Notes under the pieces: model-generated
What the model was told of the DNA's origin: nothing
Databases searched by the model: none
The model's input: only the letters and a program-made list of their open reading frames with translations
From: Candidatus Saccharimonadia bacterium
GTDB taxonomy: Bacteria; Patescibacteriota; Saccharimonadia; Saccharimonadales; JALRHH01
DNA: 64,000 nucleotides
NCBI GenBank assembly: GCA_023253175.1
Contig: JALRHH010000002.1
Span: forward strand, 128,199-192,198
Direction: 5' to 3'
Translations under genes and position numbers: made by a program
In this document: positions 1,890-56,085 of the stretch, piece by piece
How positions within the stretch are numbered: the stretch's first letter is position 1
Layout: each line of letters starts with the position of its first letter

Positions 1890-3764
1890 CTAGTACAGTG
1901 CGGCTGCTTTTGGAAGAATTGATCCGTTCAGGATTTCAATGACTTCTTCAGCTTCTACGGTTTCCTTCTCAAGCAAGGCCTTCTTTAGCTCCTCGAGCTT
2001 TGGCTTATTCGCCTTGATCACTTCGCGGGCGCGCACGGCAGCCTCGGTAATCAATGCTTCAACCTCATCATCAATAACCTTGGCTGTTTCATCGGAATAT
2101 TGCTTTTCGTGAACCATGCGCTCCAGCATCATACCTTCTTCAACATGGAATACCTGATCACGAAGCTTTTGACCCATTCCTTGGTTAACAACCATTTCCC
2201 GGGCTAGTTCAGCCGCTTTCTGAAGATCAGACCCAGCACCAGTCGTTACTCGGTCCTTACCATACATAACTTCTTCGGCGATACGACCACCAAGCATACG
2301 CGCGAGCACATCCTTGTATTCAACAATACTGTGGTAACTCTTGTCTTCTGGTGGAATAAACCATGTTACGCCACCAGTACCACCACGTGGAATAATTGTC
2401 ACCTTGTGCACCATGTCGCTGTCAGGAAGTACATGACCAACAATCGCGTGACCAGCTTCGTGATACGCAGTCAGCTCCTTTTCCTTGTCGCTCATGATCT
2501 TGCCCTTGCGCTCTGGACCAATCGCAACCTTCTCAAAGGCTGCAGTTACGTCAGCTTGGGTAATTTCTTTACTGTTGTGACGCGCTGCAACAATTGCAGA
2601 TTCGTTTGCAATATTTGCGAGATCAGCACCAGATGAGCCAGCAGTCTTTGCAGCCAAAGCATCAAGATCAACAGACTTAGATGCAGGCTTTTTCTCAAAG
2701 TGCTTCTTAAGAATTGCCTCGCGCTCCTTGCGGTCTGGCAAACCAACGGTCACACGGCGATCGAAACGGCCCGGACGAAGCAGTGCTGGATCAAGCACGT
2801 CAACACGGTTGGTTGCAGCGATCACGATAACATTCGCACCTTGCTCGAATCCGTCCATCTCGGTCAAGATCTGGTTAAGTGTCTGTTCACGCTCGTCATG
2901 TCCACCGCCCATTCCAGAACCACGGCGACGTCCAACCGCATCAATCTCATCAATAAAGATAATGCACGGTGCATTCTTTTTGGCCTTCGCAAATAGGTCA
3001 CGAACACGGCTTGCACCCACACCAACAAACATTTCCACAAATTCTGAACCAGAAATACTAAAGAATGGTACGTCAGCTTCACCAGCAACTGCGCGGGCGA
3101 TCATCGTCTTACCGGTTCCAGGAGGGCCAACTAACAGCACTCCCTTTGGAATCTTAGCGCCAACAGATTCAAATTTTTTAGGGAACTTCAGGAATTCTAC
3201 AACTTCTTCGAGATCCTGCTTTGACTCCTGGTAGCCAGCAATATCCTTGAAACTAACCTTACCCTTTTCGTTTCCGTATAAACGAGCTCTGCTCTTACCA
3301 AAGCTCATCGCCTGGTTACCCTGACCCTGGGCGCTGCGCATCATGAACAGCAGCACACCGATAATCAACACGACTGGCAACATGGTCAGCAGTACACTAC
3401 CCCATATCGAACCTGACTTTGATTCTTCTTTGTATTCGACATCAACCTTACCGTAGTCAACGCCTTCTTCTCGGAGACTCACGTTCGAGTTAACGCGTGA
3501 CTTTAATGTGGGCTCGTTCTTTCCCTGTTCTGTAATTTCCAGAGCAGCACCAGTAACTACGATTTTCTTATACTTACCATCATTAACTTGTTGAATTACT
3601 TCACTAAGGTCAACTTCTTTAAGCTGCTGCTTGTTATTGCCATAGGAGCCAAAAATGATTAATCCGATAAGTACGAGCAACGCGATGAAACCAGCGTTCT
3701 TAATCGTACGCTTTTTCTGGTCACCCCCACTTTTCTTTGATGTGCGAAAAGGTTTTTTATCCAT
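1890..3764 (-). CDS. ftsH: ATP-dependent zinc metalloprotease FtsH
   Basis: Walker A GPPGTGKT, Walker B IIFIDEID, second region of homology, HEAGH zinc site, N-terminal TM segments. Confidence 0.96.
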
Positions 3765-3798
3765 GTCTATCCATTATACAGATGAGATTACTTGTTGG

Positions 3799-4686
3799 CT
3801 AGCGGTCAGGATGCTCGAGTGCCAGGTACGTCTTATGGATTCGCATCTTCACGCCTTTTTGCACATCCACTATTGCGCCCGGGAAGAATGTCTTACCCGC
3901 AACGACTAATCTTTCGAGAGTCTTTTGATCAAAATCACGAATGCCCTGCTGCCTCAGCCATGCAGCCATGACTTCTCGGGAAACGGCATGAGATAGCCTG
4001 TTGAATTGGCGCCTATCAACCGTGCCCCCTTTTGATTGCAAGTGAAGAAAATGCAGCAGCTGCTCATCGAGATCATCGTTAACTTGGTGCATCCGTTTAA
4101 TAACCTCGCCGAGCCGCTGCCTGTCTTCCGGTGCAAGCTGCGGTAGAATTTTGTGCCGGATGTAATTTCTAAGCAACCGAATATCGGTATTCGTACTATC
4201 CTCGCGCCAAACAAGACCCTGGTCCTGCGCATAGCGGCGAATATCATCTTTTGCTATGTGCAGTATTGGTCGATGGATATTTGTCCGCGACCGAAGTGCA
4301 GTCAGGCCCTTCCTGTTTGTGCCGCGCAGCATATTAAGCACTGCTGTCTCAAGCGCATCGTTATGGTGATGGGCGGTAATAATAGCCTTAGCGCCACTCG
4401 CCCTCCGGACATTGTGCAAGAATTCATACCTTGCTCTACGGGCTACATCTTCACTCGCCGCTGGTCCTAGGTTGCCTTCGTGGTACACGAATGGAATACC
4501 GTACTGCTCAGAAGCGTGCTGCACAAGCTGCCTATCCAAATGTGAGTCACTCCGGATACCATGATCGAAATGGGCGGCAATAAGTTTTAGATCCGGCTGA
4601 TTTGCAAGCGCATGAAGTAGCGCCATACTGTCGACCCCACCCGACACGGCCACCACATATAACCCTGGCTGTACATCCACCTTCAT
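3799..4686 (-). CDS. tilS: tRNA(Ile)-lysidine synthase TilS
   Basis: PP-loop motif VAVSGGVDS near the N-terminus, and the conserved tilS-ftsH neighbourhood. Start placed at MKVDVQPG (ATG 4686) to avoid a 27-nt head-on overlap with the divergent gene. The track start 4737 is the alternative. Confidence 0.8.
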   Translation of the reverse strand: MKVDVQPGLYVVAVSGGVDSMALLHALANQPDLKLIAAHFDHGIRSDSHLDRQLVQHASEQYGIPFVYHEGNLGPAASEDVARRARYEFLHNVRRASGAKAIITAHHHNDALETAVLNMLRGTNRKGLTALRSRTNIHRPILHIAKDDIRRYAQDQGLVWREDSTNTDIRLLRNYIRHKILPQLAPEDRQRLGEVIKRMHQVNDDLDEQLLHFLHLQSKGGTVDRRQFNRLSHAVSREVMAAWLRQQGIRDFDQKTLERLVVAGKTFFPGAIVDVQKGVKMRIHKTYLALEHPDR

Positions 4687-5280: not shown

Positions 5281-5325
5281 AACGGCTGATTCTCATGGCG
5301 GCGTAGCTCAGTTGGTTAGAGCGCA

Positions 5326-5443
5326 TTAATAATTCAGAATTTTTTTGGGGCGGCGTAGCTCAGTTGGTTAGAGCGCAGGACTCATAAGCCTGAGGTCACA
5401 GGTTCGAACCCCGTCGCCGCTACCAAAAAAGCGCTGAATTATT
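5326..5443 (+). repeat. Insert 1 of the dissected tRNA: inverted-repeat-bounded segment that carries the intact tRNA
   Basis: Perfect 11-bp inverted repeat TAATAATTCAG (5327-5337) / CTGAATTATTA (5434-5444). A T7 run (5340-5346) and an A-run (5425-5430) immediately flank the tRNA. Confidence 0.75.
5349..5425 (+). tRNA. tRNA with CAT anticodon (elongator Met or lysidine-dependent Ile2), CCA encoded
   Basis: Hand-folded cloverleaf: acceptor GGCGGCG/CGCCGCT, D arm GCTC-AGTTGGTTA-GAGC, anticodon loop CTCATAA, T arm ACAGG-TTCGAAC-CCCGT, then ACCA. There is one A-G mismatch at 31-39. Confidence 0.9.
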
Positions 5444-5673
5444 AGGACTCATATTCGAGGACGCGCGCAGGGGCTTGCGCCGAGCACGCCGCAAGAATAT
5501 ATGCAATATAAGCCTGTCGCGCCTTGCGCTCAGCATCTGTGATATATAAAGTTAACGCGTATTAGTTCGCCGACACCACTCACCCGTCCAATTAGCGTGA
5601 ACTCAGAAACTTCCCAAGTTTCTTCAGGTCACAGGTTCGAACCCCGTCGCCGCTACCATATAGAATATTTGTG

Positions 5674-13073: not shown

Positions 13074-13148
13074 CGCGGGGTAGAGCAGTGGCAGCTCGTG
13101 TGGCTCATAACCACAAGGTCGCAGGTTCGAGTCCTGCCCCCGCTACCA
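13074..13148 (+). tRNA. Initiator tRNA-fMet (CAT), CCA encoded
   Basis: 5' CGCGGGG with a C1-U72 mismatch, D arm GAGC-AGTGGCA-GCTC, anticodon loop CTCATAA, T arm GCAGG-TTCGAGT-CCTGC. Close resemblance to E. coli tRNA-fMet. Confidence 0.9.
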
Positions 13149-13155
13149 AGAAAAG

Positions 13156-13183
13156 AGTCCGATCGAAAGATTGGGCTTTTTTC
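13156..13183 (+). terminator. Intrinsic terminator of tRNA-fMet
   Basis: Stem AGTCCGATC / GATTGGGCT (two G-U pairs), GAAA tetraloop, then a T6 run. Confidence 0.7.
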
Positions 13184-13231
13184 TTGGTCATGAAGCTGAT
13201 ACGGATCTGTGACCAACCAGCTTTAGCTGGC

Positions 13232-13321
13232 AAGGTCGTAGGTTCGGTCGACAAGCCTGCTCACAGGAATTCATTCCGAGAACAAGTGCAGTCGTGCGCT
13301 GCCTGCCCCCGCTATCACAGG
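13232..13321 (+). pseudogene. Broken duplicates of the 3' half of tRNA-fMet
   Basis: AAGGTCGTAGGTTCGGTC...CCTGC (13232-13260) and CCTGCCCCCGCTATCA (13302-13317) match the tRNA's AAGGTCGCAGGTTCGAGTCCTGCCCCCGCTACCA with 3 substitutions and inserted segments. Both parts are followed by TCACAGG. Confidence 0.6.
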
Positions 13322-13374
13322 CCTTTGACCCATGGAAATCAGGGTCTTTCTACTTTGTCTGCTATCATGTGCTT

Positions 13375-13908
13375 ATGGATGAAGAGCTAGTAGATATTCT
13401 TGATGATAGTGAAAATGTCTTGCGACAAGAGTTCAAAACAGAAGCCCATAAGCATGGATGGAAGCACAAAACGGTTATAGGTTACTTAAAGTTTGGCGAT
13501 GATTGGTCTTTAGTGAGGCAGGCAGCAGACAGACAAGATGCTGGTCAACTAGTTGCACCTGTCGGAGGTCACGTTAAAGCTGGTGAAGCAGAGATAGATG
13601 CCCTACTGCGTGAAGCAGAAGAAGAGATTGGTACTCGCAACATTACATATAAATATGTAGGCAGCAAGGTTTTTCATCGCAGTATTATCGGTAGAGACGA
13701 GAACCATTTATTCGCCATCTATGAGATAGGAACAGACGACCCTATTGTACTCAACGAAGAGTCAGTCGCGATCGAACGATTTAAGCCAGAAGAATTAAAG
13801 AAAGCCCTCGATGAACATCCTGAAAATTTTGGGGATGCTTATTATTTCGTTCTCGAATCCTTTTATCCAGATTATTTACCTGCAGGTTATACTAAGCGCT
13901 GGTCCTAG
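13375..13908 (+). CDS. Nudix hydrolase
   Basis: Nudix box GGHVKAGEAEIDALLREAEEEIGT. Start moved to MDEELV (13375), because the track start 13294 lies inside the tRNA-fragment region. Confidence 0.75.
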   Translation: MDEELVDILDDSENVLRQEFKTEAHKHGWKHKTVIGYLKFGDDWSLVRQAADRQDAGQLVAPVGGHVKAGEAEIDALLREAEEEIGTRNITYKYVGSKVFHRSIIGRDENHLFAIYEIGTDDPIVLNEESVAIERFKPEELKKALDEHPENFGDAYYFVLESFYPDYLPAGYTKRWS

Positions 13909-25069: not shown

Positions 25070-25519
25070 CTACTCTGAACGGTGAGTAAAGAAATCCACC
25101 CAAGCTTCGATATTTTTCTGGATGAATGGTTTTTTCAAGGTTGGAGTGGCTGTTTCGGCCACCACTTCTTTTGGAATTTCTGGCGCGTATTTCAGTGCTA
25201 CGCTTTCGGGTACAAGCAGCAGCTTCTCACCCGGCTGTCCTTTTCCAAACTGGCGGCGCGCCGTTAGCTCCAAGTATTGATCAGTATTGTAGTAGTCATT
25301 TTGAAGTTTCAGATTATTGTTTTCAAGCTGGCGGACCTGATTTTCTTGCTCTAGTTTTGAGACCTGTTTCTGCAGTTCGTAGTTAGTTTCAATGACTGAA
25401 ATACCACTCCATGTGACCAGTAGCACGAGTACGCCAAACACCACAAATCCCGTGAAACGTACGTCCCGGAATTGCTGCACGAATGCGTGATTATAGTATT
25501 TTTGTATTTTTTCTAGCAT
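25070..25519 (-). CDS. Septum formation initiator, FtsB/DivIC family
   Basis: N-terminal TM followed by a leucine-zipper coiled coil (LQKQVSKLEQENQVRQLENNNLKLQNDY), then YLELTARRQFG. Confidence 0.75.
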   Translation of the reverse strand: MLEKIQKYYNHAFVQQFRDVRFTGFVVFGVLVLLVTWSGISVIETNYELQKQVSKLEQENQVRQLENNNLKLQNDYYNTDQYLELTARRQFGKGQPGEKLLLVPESVALKYAPEIPKEVVAETATPTLKKPFIQKNIEAWVDFFTHRSE

Positions 25520-25590
25520 GGACTATCGTTCATTATACATGAAATGGTATACTCACATCTGTTACCCAGAGAGAGTACACATCACACCAT

Positions 25591-25666
25591 GGGGGTGTAG
25601 CTCAGGGGTTAGAGCAGTCGGCTCATAACCGATTGGTCGCTGGTTCGAACCCAGCCACCCCCACCA
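25591..25666 (+). tRNA. tRNA with CAT anticodon (elongator Met or Ile2), CCA encoded
   Basis: Acceptor GGGGGTG/CACCCCC, D arm GCTC-AGGGGTTA-GAGC, anticodon arm GTCGG-CTCATAA-CCGAT, T arm GCTGG-TTCGAAC-CCAGC. Confidence 0.9.
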
Positions 25667-29583: not shown

Positions 29584-30318
29584 TTAGTTGTCGACTACTC
29601 TATTGTAGCCGCGCTTTTCCAGGCCAATACCGATCCCTGGCAGGTGAGCCAACCCCCATATTAACGTAAATGAAGCATCGGCATTATCCTGCAGTGCTCG
29701 TTCAACCGCCTGAAGCGCCACCTCATTCCGGTCGCCAACAATCACCTTTTCATATACGGCGGCGTGAGGATCATCCGGGACAGGATCATCAAGTGTTCCC
29801 TCTTCCAGAATGAATTCACGCAGTCCTTTTCGTTGGTCGGGTCGGAGTCCCCGAACCAAAGATAGCACTTCCGTCATACGCCGAGCCCTTTCCGTAAGGC
29901 ACTGAGATGGTAGTCTCTGGACAATTTCCAGCGCAGTCAAGTCATGGTTTTCCCAGCCTCTCGTATCCATATTGTCATTGCCATGGTAGCGAAAGCCCTG
30001 GTGATCAGTCTGATGAGTGAGCTCAAGTAAGTCAGCAATGTGCCGTGCGGCACGTTCGCGGCGCTGTAGGGCATCGTATTTAAGCTTTGTGAGTCGATCT
30101 ACCTGCTCCAGCTCGTCTTCTTCGGCGGAAAGGATGAGTTCATAATGAATGGTACTGCCGGCATCCTGCCTGGCAGCGATATATTGATAAGCCTCATCAT
30201 ATGGCGTCGGATCTGGCAGCCAGTGAACCATGCCAACAAGCGCTACATCACCGGCTCTTTCGGGATGCTGATATCGTACAATCGGTAAGCCACTTTCAAT
30301 CTGAAGTCTATCTGACAT
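29584..30318 (-). CDS. TraB/GumN-family-like protein
   Basis: N-terminal VALVGMVHWLPD and C-terminal VGDRNEVALQAVERAL...LIWGLAHLPGIGIGLEKRGY resemble the TraB/GumN pattern, recalled from memory. Confidence 0.5.
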   Translation of the reverse strand: MSDRLQIESGLPIVRYQHPERAGDVALVGMVHWLPDPTPYDEAYQYIAARQDAGSTIHYELILSAEEDELEQVDRLTKLKYDALQRRERAARHIADLLELTHQTDHQGFRYHGNDNMDTRGWENHDLTALEIVQRLPSQCLTERARRMTEVLSLVRGLRPDQRKGLREFILEEGTLDDPVPDDPHAAVYEKVIVGDRNEVALQAVERALQDNADASFTLIWGLAHLPGIGIGLEKRGYNRVVDN

Positions 30319-55836: not shown

Positions 55837-56085
55837 AAAAATACCCTCATTCTCTGATGCGAAAATGAGGGGACTAAAATACTTAGGCACTTCACTCTTG
55901 CTCGAGAGATTTTATCGCTGTATCGGACTTTAACCGTTGCGGCACAGTTCAGGAATTTCACCTGCTTCCAGCTCTATGTTTTTGTAAAAGTTACGCTTAT
56001 CTTATCACGAAAATAGGACGCTAGATGTAGTAGTATACGCTACAGCTAGTGCCCTATTTGTATGTCATACACCAGGGGTGGTGTA

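Follow-up and report, generated by a model that had tools for sequence, protein, structure and literature searches.

Introduction

Genomic islands and prophages that rely on tyrosine integrases enter the 3' ends of tRNA genes, leave the gene intact, are flanked by repeats that run from the T loop or the anticodon loop to the CCA end, supply their own terminator, and leave both empty and occupied sites among related genomes. Tyrosine integrases are reported to cross over in tRNA genes at two classical sublocations, the T loop and the anticodon loop. The units described here, found behind tRNA genes of Saccharibacteria, share these traits, but they measure ~150-170 nt, have neither integrase nor cargo, place one module at 15 tRNA classes, interrupt the T arm and contain an inverted tRNA half; the rule of one element family to one att site or tRNA, which holds for islands and prophages, does not hold for them.

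Casposons and similar elements also insert at tRNA 3' ends with an unusually long target duplication, said to be 14-15 bp for casposons and amounting to 16-19 nt in the units. The units differ from them in having no Cas1, polymerase or element-borne terminal inverted repeats, and in using many tRNA classes; their 'inverted repeat' is tRNA sequence, unlike casposon ends. The Mauriceville and Varkud retroplasmids of Neurospora integrate via hybrid cDNAs begun on the CCA end of a tRNA, followed by homologous recombination. Like the units, they show foreign sequence joined exactly at a tRNA CCA, accept any tRNA and have tRNA-like 3' ends, but no reverse transcriptase was found in the window, and the setting here is a bacterial chromosome, not a mitochondrial plasmid; since CCA is gene-encoded in the hosts of the units, a 'non-encoded CCA' signature would be unreadable in them.

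Intervening sequences are known from bacterial rRNA, and non-canonical introns from the hairpin loops of archaeal tRNAs. Both recall the units in that a structured hairpin occurs sporadically in the terminal loop of a conserved helix, but the module of the units occupies an incomplete copy that does not function, next to an intact gene, and shows no evidence of excision. A group I intron, with its catalytic core P3-P9, occupies more than 200 nt in the anticodon loop of a functional gene, whereas the module comprises ~75 nt within a partial copy. MITEs and REP/REPIN elements resemble the units in being short, non-coding, repeated, hairpin-rich and intergenic, with copies that recombine (as in loci L085 and L093); the units differ in that their arms are copied from the target and vary by locus, in that they have no fixed element ends and no short fixed target duplication (the repeats span 16-40 nt), and in their strict location and orientation relative to a tRNA gene.

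The unit that is the subject of this study follows a tRNA-fMet gene in a 64,000-nt stretch of DNA from a Candidatus Saccharimonadia bacterium (contig JALRHH010000002.1); this whole stretch is called the window. A preliminary description of the window had noted two pieces of the tRNA-fMet 3' half downstream of the intact gene, and had read them as scars of site-specific recombination in the T loop.

Material and methods

Relatives of the tRNA-fMet locus were obtained as 46 species-level loci via alignment of homologues of the adjacent Nudix protein, and as three further loci via exact-protein look-up. The source names of the Nudix homologues and of the related genome contigs were Candidatus Saccharibacteria. 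Exact-protein look-up of the Nudix gene product, with two alternative start codons, gave no match, and that of the upstream 136-aa protein returned identical strains only. For the wider family, metagenome contigs were scanned for one exact 24-nt module motif, GCAGGNGCTTGCNCCGAGCACGCC, taken from the stretch shared by locus L010 and the unit behind the window tRNA gene at 5349. Covariance model R1 was built from 20 units and recovered 44 module copies among the locus sequences collected. Folding energies, tRNA calls and other scores are given with the features in table 1.

Table 1. Features of the two units and their tRNA genes in the window (positions within the 64,000 nt; all on the strand read).
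Feature	Position	Strand	Evidence
Second family member, far better preserved, behind tRNA-Met(CAT) 5349-5425	5426..5659	+	R1 47.8 bits; nhmmer
Intact initiator-type tRNA-Met (CAT) gene, CCA encoded	13074..13148	+	ARAGORN; Rfam tRNA 63.8 bits
Palindromic A-run/stem/T-run hairpin, terminator-like; left end of the insert	13145..13188	+	20-nt arms, 85% complementary
Degenerate inverted copy of the tRNA-fMet 3' half	13185..13214	+	Read from sequence
Small hairpin CCAGC-TTTA-GCTGG at the position of the family's variable spacer hairpin	13217..13230	+	RNAfold -7.4 kcal/mol, z -4.8
Direct copy: variable loop, 5' strand of T stem, TTCG of T loop	13231..13247	+	15/16 to 13114-13129
Likely degenerate copy of the family's inserted module	13248..13301	+	Covariance model R1; alignments with L075 and L061 unit 2
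Repeat copy 2: 3' strand of T stem, 3' strand of acceptor, discriminator, (T)CA; right end of the insert	13302..13317	+	15/16 to 13133-13148
Weak hairpin GACCC/GGGTC, then T-rich run	13328..13357	+	RNAfold -8.6 kcal/mol, z -2.1

Results

Two fragments of tRNA-fMet downstream of the intact gene

The gene at 13074 has a C1xU72 mismatch, as read from the sequence, and its final 16 nt (13133-13148) form the first copy of the repeat. The two downstream pieces are real: a repeat search recovered CAAGGTCGTAGGTTCG (13231-13246) and CCTGCCCCCGCTATCA (13302-13317, with CCA changed to TCA), and these two 16-mers of the 226-nt spacer fall within one mismatch of the tRNA-fMet 3' half, while none of 2000 shuffles of the spacer contained even one. 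At up to three mismatches the 34-nt 3' end of tRNA-fMet had no further copy within the 64-kb window. Nine metagenome contigs of the same strain, obtained in other samples, were identical over the region, except for two differences within the tRNA in one short contig, which excludes an assembly artefact.

Occupied and empty sites in relatives

The occupied locus L010 showed the order seen in the window, with tRNA-fMet followed by a new terminator, a AGCAGGTTCGG piece and an exact 17-nt copy of the 3' end of its own tRNA. Past this repeat, its flank matched the flank of the intact tRNA-fMet gene of L021 over 51 nt (94%, E 4e-16). L058 holds a shorter version with an internal deletion and the same right end as L010, GTGCGCTG, and units of the same architecture were also found behind tRNA-fMet in L060, L061, L082 and L092. 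Empty sites, for which relatives were inspected between tRNA-fMet and the Nudix gene as the preliminary description had advised, were present in L012, L021 and the syntenic L057: there the terminator comes directly after tRNA-fMet, and in L057 the tRNA gene lies 106 nt upstream of the Nudix gene. Taken together, the occupied sites (L010, L058) and the empty ones (L012, L021, L057) mean that the window fragments bound an insert, 13149-13317. Exact deletion between the direct repeats could also yield sites that look empty, so gain is not proven over loss.

A family of units behind 15 tRNA classes

The motif scan of metagenome contigs returned 44 loci. ARAGORN placed a tRNA gene near the motif in 33 of them, and in all 33 the motif shared the strand of the tRNA and lay downstream of it; the distance from the tRNA end was 86-121 nt in 31 cases, and 30 and 211 nt in the two elongator-Met loci. 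Fifteen tRNA classes were represented (Pro, fMet, Met, Lys, Glu, Ser, Ala, Ile, Arg, Phe, Gln, Leu, Asn, Val and Tyr), and for each class the arms of the unit were copied from its own neighbouring tRNA. A repeat of the own tRNA 3' end, ending in CCA at +144 to +173, was exact over 16-19 nt in 17 of the 33 loci and shorter (10-14 nt) in six; L068 had a 40-nt tRNA repeat at +92, and the scripted search found no own-tRNA repeat of at least 10 nt in the other nine. An 805-kb contig with two units bears the NCBI label Candidatus Saccharimonadales; some of the carrier contigs at least are therefore Saccharimonadales (Saccharibacteria). Motif scans of viral contigs gave no matches.

The units begin directly past the tRNA CCA and have a uniform size of ~150-170 nt over the loci, a uniformity that is inflated by ascertainment through a single exact 24-nt motif. 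Six parts can be told apart. A palindromic A-run/stem/T-run hairpin, in which NCCA pairs with TGGN, is followed by an inverted copy of tRNA nt ~44-76 (70-90% identity), a variable hairpin, and a near-exact direct copy of nt ~44-57 that stops at the TTCG of the T loop. The conserved hairpin module of ~75 nt comes next, placed between nt 57 and 58 of the T loop, and the final 16-19 nt of the tRNA, to CCA, complete the unit and adjoin the native flank. The direct arm and the terminal repeat are nearly identical to the tRNA; the inverted arm is diverged. Not every unit regains a normal 7-nt T loop when its module is taken out.

Two traits considered for the units were discarded. Pairing of the inverted arm with the terminal repeat into an acceptor-like stem would give a full tRNA-like cloverleaf, but it is not a conserved feature, having been lost in several units (as read from the sequences, L098 keeps 4 of 7 pairs, and L060 and L067 have lost the pairing). 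A setting in rRNA spacers, where transcription would be certain, was rejected for the Ala- and Ile-linked units, the 23S gene of L088 being divergent from the tRNAs. The unit of L065 lies between two co-oriented tRNA genes.

The second unit of the window, at 5426, belongs to a variant found with elongator-type tRNA-Met(CAT). It was detected by R1 at E 6.5e-13 and by nhmmer with the module at E 6.4e-13, and shares 38 nt at 92% identity with the fMet insert of L010. A copy of the anticodon loop, GGACTCATA (5445-5453), precedes its module, and the unit ends with an exact 33-nt repeat of tRNA-Met nt 44-76 (5627-5659). In all units of this type (this one, L068 and L076) the module comes after the anticodon-loop copy, the repeat extends from nt 37 or 44 to nt 76, and there is neither a terminator nor an inverted arm. 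The third tRNA-Met gene of the window has no unit.

Structure of the conserved module

The module has the pattern GAGGACGCGCGCAGG-hairpin-CCGAGCACGCC, with the direct arm on one side and the terminal repeat on the other. RNAalifold, run on a MAFFT alignment, folded it into a long hairpin of irregular shape that the T stem closes. Over the 44 copies, 94.3% of cells were paired (81.3% in shuffles), double-sided changes occurred in 14 of 17 pairs, and covariation reached 0.366 as compared with 0.132 in shuffles (0 of 500) and 0.04-0.09 for slid partners. These values come from an alignment fitted to the model and hence biased towards the structure, with which the independent MAFFT/RNAalifold result agrees. 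The apical stem occurs as GGTG/CACC, GGAG/CTCC, GGAAT/ATTCC or a longer replacement hairpin, and the internal loops are invariant. A kink-turn reading of these loops, which came from inspection by eye, was unsupported and was dropped. On the tRNA-sense strand, G.U pairs outnumber A.C pairs by 28 to 14, a modest hint from the sequences that this strand may be the one that folds, as RNA or as single-stranded DNA.

Searches of the window and of seven well-preserved loci against Rfam 15, at gathering and at permissive thresholds (E<=10), identified no family for the module and returned tRNA and chance hairpins only. A group I intron was rejected on this result, on the ~75-nt length of the module and on the intact gene adjacent to it. 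A literature search that included the motif as a text string found no description of module or element, and the module family is apparently an element kind undescribed so far.

The insert behind tRNA-fMet of the window

The 169-nt insert starts at 13149, right after the CCA at 13146-13148. The hairpin at its left end begins inside the tRNA ACCA and finishes with TGGT (RNAfold -29.9 kcal/mol, z -7.7), and its A-run/stem/T-run design recurs in the T-loop-type family members examined. In the inverted arm, TGGT and ...ACGGATCTGTGACC stand against the reverse complement TGGTAGCGGGGGCAGGACTCGAACCTGCGACC: TGGT and ~10 of 14 positions of the T-arm part are kept, the acceptor part is gone, and the arm is weakly recognisable. 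The stretch TGGTCATGA(A/G)GC of this arm is common to the window and unit 2 of L061, and the distal unit of L060 is close to it. The small hairpin has its equivalent at the same place in L067 (CAGC-TTTA-GCTG), and the putative module includes an apical hairpin, CAGGAATTCATTCCGAG, at 13264-13280. The weak hairpin beyond the right end is probably the original terminator of tRNA-fMet in a displaced position, to judge from L010 and L021, in which the flank moved outward equals the native terminator. The unit has no ORF and no coding capacity. Gene callers place ORFs across such units.

Although position, terminator hairpin, small hairpin, direct arm and terminal repeat all agree with the family, a sequence-only module profile detected the unit at 5426 and left the fMet module undetected at E<64. 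With R1 a full-length match was obtained at 13230-13322 (16.5 bits, E ~0.01), the second best in the 64 kb, as against 13.3 bits for a bare true T arm; with the profile missing the module and the T arm alone scoring this high, membership rests on architecture plus intermediates. One of these is L075, where 17 nt at 4533-4549, flanked by the family's CGCGCAGG and CCGAGCA, are identical to the CAGGAATTCATTCCGAG hairpin and lie within a decayed, model-detected second copy of a Phe unit. Another is unit 2 of L061, with which the window insert aligned over its full length at a score of 105 (shuffles 54.8 +/- 6.4, z 7.9), so that the fragments are not absent or unalignable in all relatives, the outcome for which the preliminary description had reserved a random local duplication. 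A third, the distal remnant of L060, has the terminator and TGGT(C/T)ATGA.GC in common with the window. The best nhmmer matches of the insert lie inside other units.

The insert is thus very probably an old, decayed member of the family. Homology of 13248-13301 to the family module, as a heavily decayed copy, is likely, and the unit is probably orthologous to the distal units of L061 and L060. Two motifs to which the preliminary description had drawn attention, CCTGC (13256-13260) and the heptamer TCACAGG (13261-13267 and 13315-13321), find no support as meaningful features. Both are where it had put them, but in the cmsearch alignment 13256 falls on the 'GACGC' part of the conserved module instead of representing a T-stem copy, and the relatives have no counterpart of the heptamer.

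Turnover and recombination of units

In the three loci with tandem units (L061, L060 and L067) an intact unit adjoins the tRNA, and a decayed or truncated one lies distal to it; in L061 the pair lies behind tRNA-fMet, with the distal unit decayed, and no locus had an intact motif in a distal unit. L085 carries a chimera of the left half of a Lys unit and the right half of a Met unit, joined inside the module, and L093 has three copies within 3.8 kb. In L062 both arms read ..ATCCC and the resident tRNA ..GTCCC; the arms share a T-loop variant without a match in the resident tRNA, which indicates that they travel with the unit. Tandem order, chimeras and L062 speak for units that are gained repeatedly at the true tRNA 3' end, decay as they age and recombine with one another.

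The window ORFs and the neighbours of the 44 loci yielded no autonomous partner. Pfam identified no integrase, reverse transcriptase or transposase in any of the 60 window ORFs tested, in line with the earlier remark that no integrase is present, and no Cas1 within the window. An all-against-all comparison of the ORFs of the 44 loci gave no recurrent neighbour protein family; the recurring frames were spurious ones through the units.

Discussion

The two fragments in the window are best read as the tRNA-derived arms of an old, decaying copy from a family of small non-coding insertion elements, with a probability that we put at about 60%. That the family as a whole is a selfish insertion element and not a functional RNA gene is slightly favoured. 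The window locus is a relic, and the family matches no known kind among the resources compared.

As an insertion element, a unit would enter directly after the CCA, and its own terminator would preserve the host tRNA gene: the palindromic terminator that it brings leaves the gene intact and termination in place. A selfish, non-autonomous element of this kind may have been gained repeatedly at genuine tRNA 3' ends, new units pushing older ones outward, where they would decay as the window unit appears to have done. Saccharibacteria are naturally transformable, and spread between genomes at the same tRNA could proceed by recombination through the conserved tRNA sequence. Similarity among the modules may be maintained by exchange between units, through recombination or gene conversion, or else by a factor acting in trans that recognises the module in its folded form.

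Three candidate routes could supply the tRNA-specific arms. The first is target-templated synthesis, in which the tRNA would serve for reverse transcription or template switching; TGG, with which the inverted arm begins, directly follows the 3' end of the terminator, as snap-back extension would have it. The second would be lineages, each specific to one isotype, among which gene conversion homogenises the modules, and the third a trans-acting recombinase acting on 7-nt loops. For recombination alone, a nearly invariant module with tRNA-specific arms behind 15 classes is hard to explain.

Selfishness may not be the whole account. Compensatory changes in the sequences keep the hairpin even in decayed copies, which suggests a function under selection and not pure selfishness. 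The unit could accordingly be read as a functional, vertically inherited and immobile companion of the tRNA gene, with the fMet unit of the window as its pseudogene, an alternative that we regard as unlikely, though it is the strongest of those weighed; it keeps a minority share of the probability because the hairpin is maintained by compensatory changes. Equally unlikely is its more specific form, which takes the unit for a structured RNA or for a module that acts in cis on processing or termination. Its basis would be a mimic of the T arm and acceptor of the neighbouring tRNA, and its conserved hairpin would bind protein or act as a catalyst. Such a companion agrees with the strong covariation of the module and with internal loops that do not vary, with the excess of G.U over A.C pairs on the tRNA-sense strand, with a direct arm and terminal repeat near-identical to the tRNA beside a divergent inverted arm, and with the location of the L065 unit; fMet units occur in several species with signs of orthology (window, distal unit of L060, unit 2 of L061). 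These points are set against the lack of a unit in many relatives (L012, L021, L057) and at the third tRNA-Met of the window, the clear decay of distal tandem units and of the window unit, and an acceptor-like pairing that has not been maintained (L098, L060, L067). No promoter is evident, moreover, and a strong terminator stands ahead of the unit.

A more speculative and improbable reading of the insertion element makes the module an invader at the RNA level, a small structured RNA entering the exposed 7-nt loops of tRNAs (the T loop at 57/58 and the anticodon loop) and becoming fixed in DNA beside the tRNA gene. Reverse transcription starting at the CCA end, together with template switching and recombination, would bring about this fixation and make the element a bacterial, tRNA-templated, SINE-like retroelement. 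Such an origin would explain the sense and antisense copies of the own-tRNA 3' half, the usability of any class, and the arrival of new units exactly at the CCA.

The reading of the preliminary description as scars of site-specific recombination in the T loop, here taken as attL/attR-type remains of an integrase-borne island or prophage that has lost its interior, is improbable, even though part of it stands. Insertion took place at the tRNA 3' end, direct repeats of that end surround the insert, empty sites exist, and one junction is in the T loop; among the units, repeats begin in the T loop (16-19 nt) or in the anticodon loop or variable region (33-40 nt). A replacement terminator is carried in the insert, as integrating elements do, a 2.7-kb insert with a Fic gene extends in L056 from tRNA-fMet to a displaced tRNA-like copy, and a serine-recombinase-like fragment lies near a tRNA in L021. 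What does not stand is a residue of a classical integrase island with CCTGC as its att core. The same conserved module is found behind at least 15 tRNA classes with class-specific arms, which one attP cannot explain; the module splits the T arm, which an attP core would need intact; and the insert contains one tRNA half in inverted orientation. Neither the window ORFs nor the surroundings of the 44 loci supplied an integrase, viral contigs were without the motif, and random internal deletions would not give a uniform size of 150-170 nt.

It is very improbable that the fragments go back to a chance duplication at the locus, or to a second tRNA-fMet gene in tandem that decayed, and have no wider meaning. 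They do keep the order of the tRNA 3' half, and decayed full-length tRNA-fMet-like pseudogenes exist in L056 and L058, but the 5' half is missing, the sequence between the fragments has homologues in units at other tRNAs and in other species, and the architecture is repeated in dozens of loci.

Programs that find islands from tRNA fragments would take the units for integrase scars. If the insertion-element reading is true, Saccharibacteria carry a previously undescribed repeat element that joins the tail of the neighbouring tRNA to a folded module set in a tRNA loop, and tRNA genes would serve as landing sites in a new mode. The element would be a source of rearrangement in these tiny genomes, in which chimeric and duplicated units were seen, and its module a candidate for a new structured RNA or recombination site. 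The family would also offer a testable case of how target-specific sequence gets built into a mobile element.

Reading frames and gene order at the tRNA-fMet locus

The two mechanically called ORFs that cross the insert downstream of tRNA-fMet (13088-13390 and 13294-13908, both on the plus strand) are not genes. Similar stop-free frames run across units, the non-coding elements with tRNA-derived arms found directly 3' of tRNA genes, in 18 loci, and are present only because the DNA itself is conserved. The start of the Nudix gene most likely lies at 13375-13378.

In relatives, the gene order is tRNA-Met (−), DivIC (+), tRNA-fMet (+) and Nudix (+). In the window, DivIC and tRNA-Met (25070-25666) are located 12 kb from tRNA-fMet (13074) and in the opposite relative orientation, which suggests a rearrangement with a breakpoint directly upstream of tRNA-fMet.

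Features located in the window outside the tRNA-fMet unit
Feature	Position	Strand	Remark
29-nt copy of the tRNA-Met(CAT) 5' end	5297-5325		
DivIC	25070-25519	−	
tRNA-Met	25591	+	
AdoCbl-II (cobalamin) riboswitch aptamer	55910-55989	−	39.5 bits, exceeds gathering score

Decayed tRNA-fMet-like pseudogenes were found near the Nudix gene in two relatives. In L056 (1064-4000), a 2.7-kb segment carrying two Fic-domain genes is placed between tRNA-fMet and a full-length but decayed tRNA-fMet-like pseudogene, the latter immediately upstream of Nudix. In L058 (2795-2937), a homologous pseudogene is located after Nudix. Immediately 3' of it, the 34-nt terminator that lies behind the real tRNA-fMet of that locus is repeated without a mismatch.

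The tRNA-Met(CAT) locus and a module-like sequence

The tRNA-Met(CAT) locus (5297-5660) is more complex than that of tRNA-fMet. Besides the 5'-end copy, the intact gene (5349-5425) is flanked on both sides by an 11-nt inverted repeat, TAATAATTCAG / CTGAATTATTA, and the locus further contains an anticodon-loop copy followed by a well-preserved module (the conserved hairpin of the unit), with about 120 nt of additional sequence ahead of an exact 33-nt repeat. Elsewhere in the window, a weak module-like sequence, GGAATGAGGTGGCGCTTCAGGCGGTTGAACGAGCAC, was detected at 29694-29729 on the minus strand (nhmmer E 5); the ORF enclosing it had no Pfam match, and the resemblance is probably due to chance.

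Units and a recombinase-like ORF at other loci

In L021, a relative with an empty tRNA-fMet site, an ORF (3008-3694) adjoins tRNA-Met (3769-3842, minus strand); judged by sequence only, its putative product is similar to the zinc-ribbon/coiled-coil region at the C-terminus of large serine recombinases. In L095 (approximately 2100-2250, minus strand), a unit was observed behind an apparent tRNA 3' half (...GGTCGCTGGTTCGAATCCAGTCCCCGGAGCCA) that was not called by ARAGORN, and the upstream part of this tRNA gene may be interrupted or degenerate.

Three unit copies lie within 3.8 kb in L093 (115-315, 1150-1335 and 2075-2173), with no tRNA called. A 244-aa gene is bracketed by two near-identical copies, one of which has a longer, unrelated hairpin in place of the apical hairpin at the module tip, with the flanking conserved strands retained. 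By comparison with L081, L083 and L087, the unit at L085 380-468 is chimeric: its left half derives from a tRNA-Lys(TTT) unit and its right half from a tRNA-Met unit, with the junction within the conserved module. This chimera indicates recombination between units of different loci, and hence genome rearrangement.
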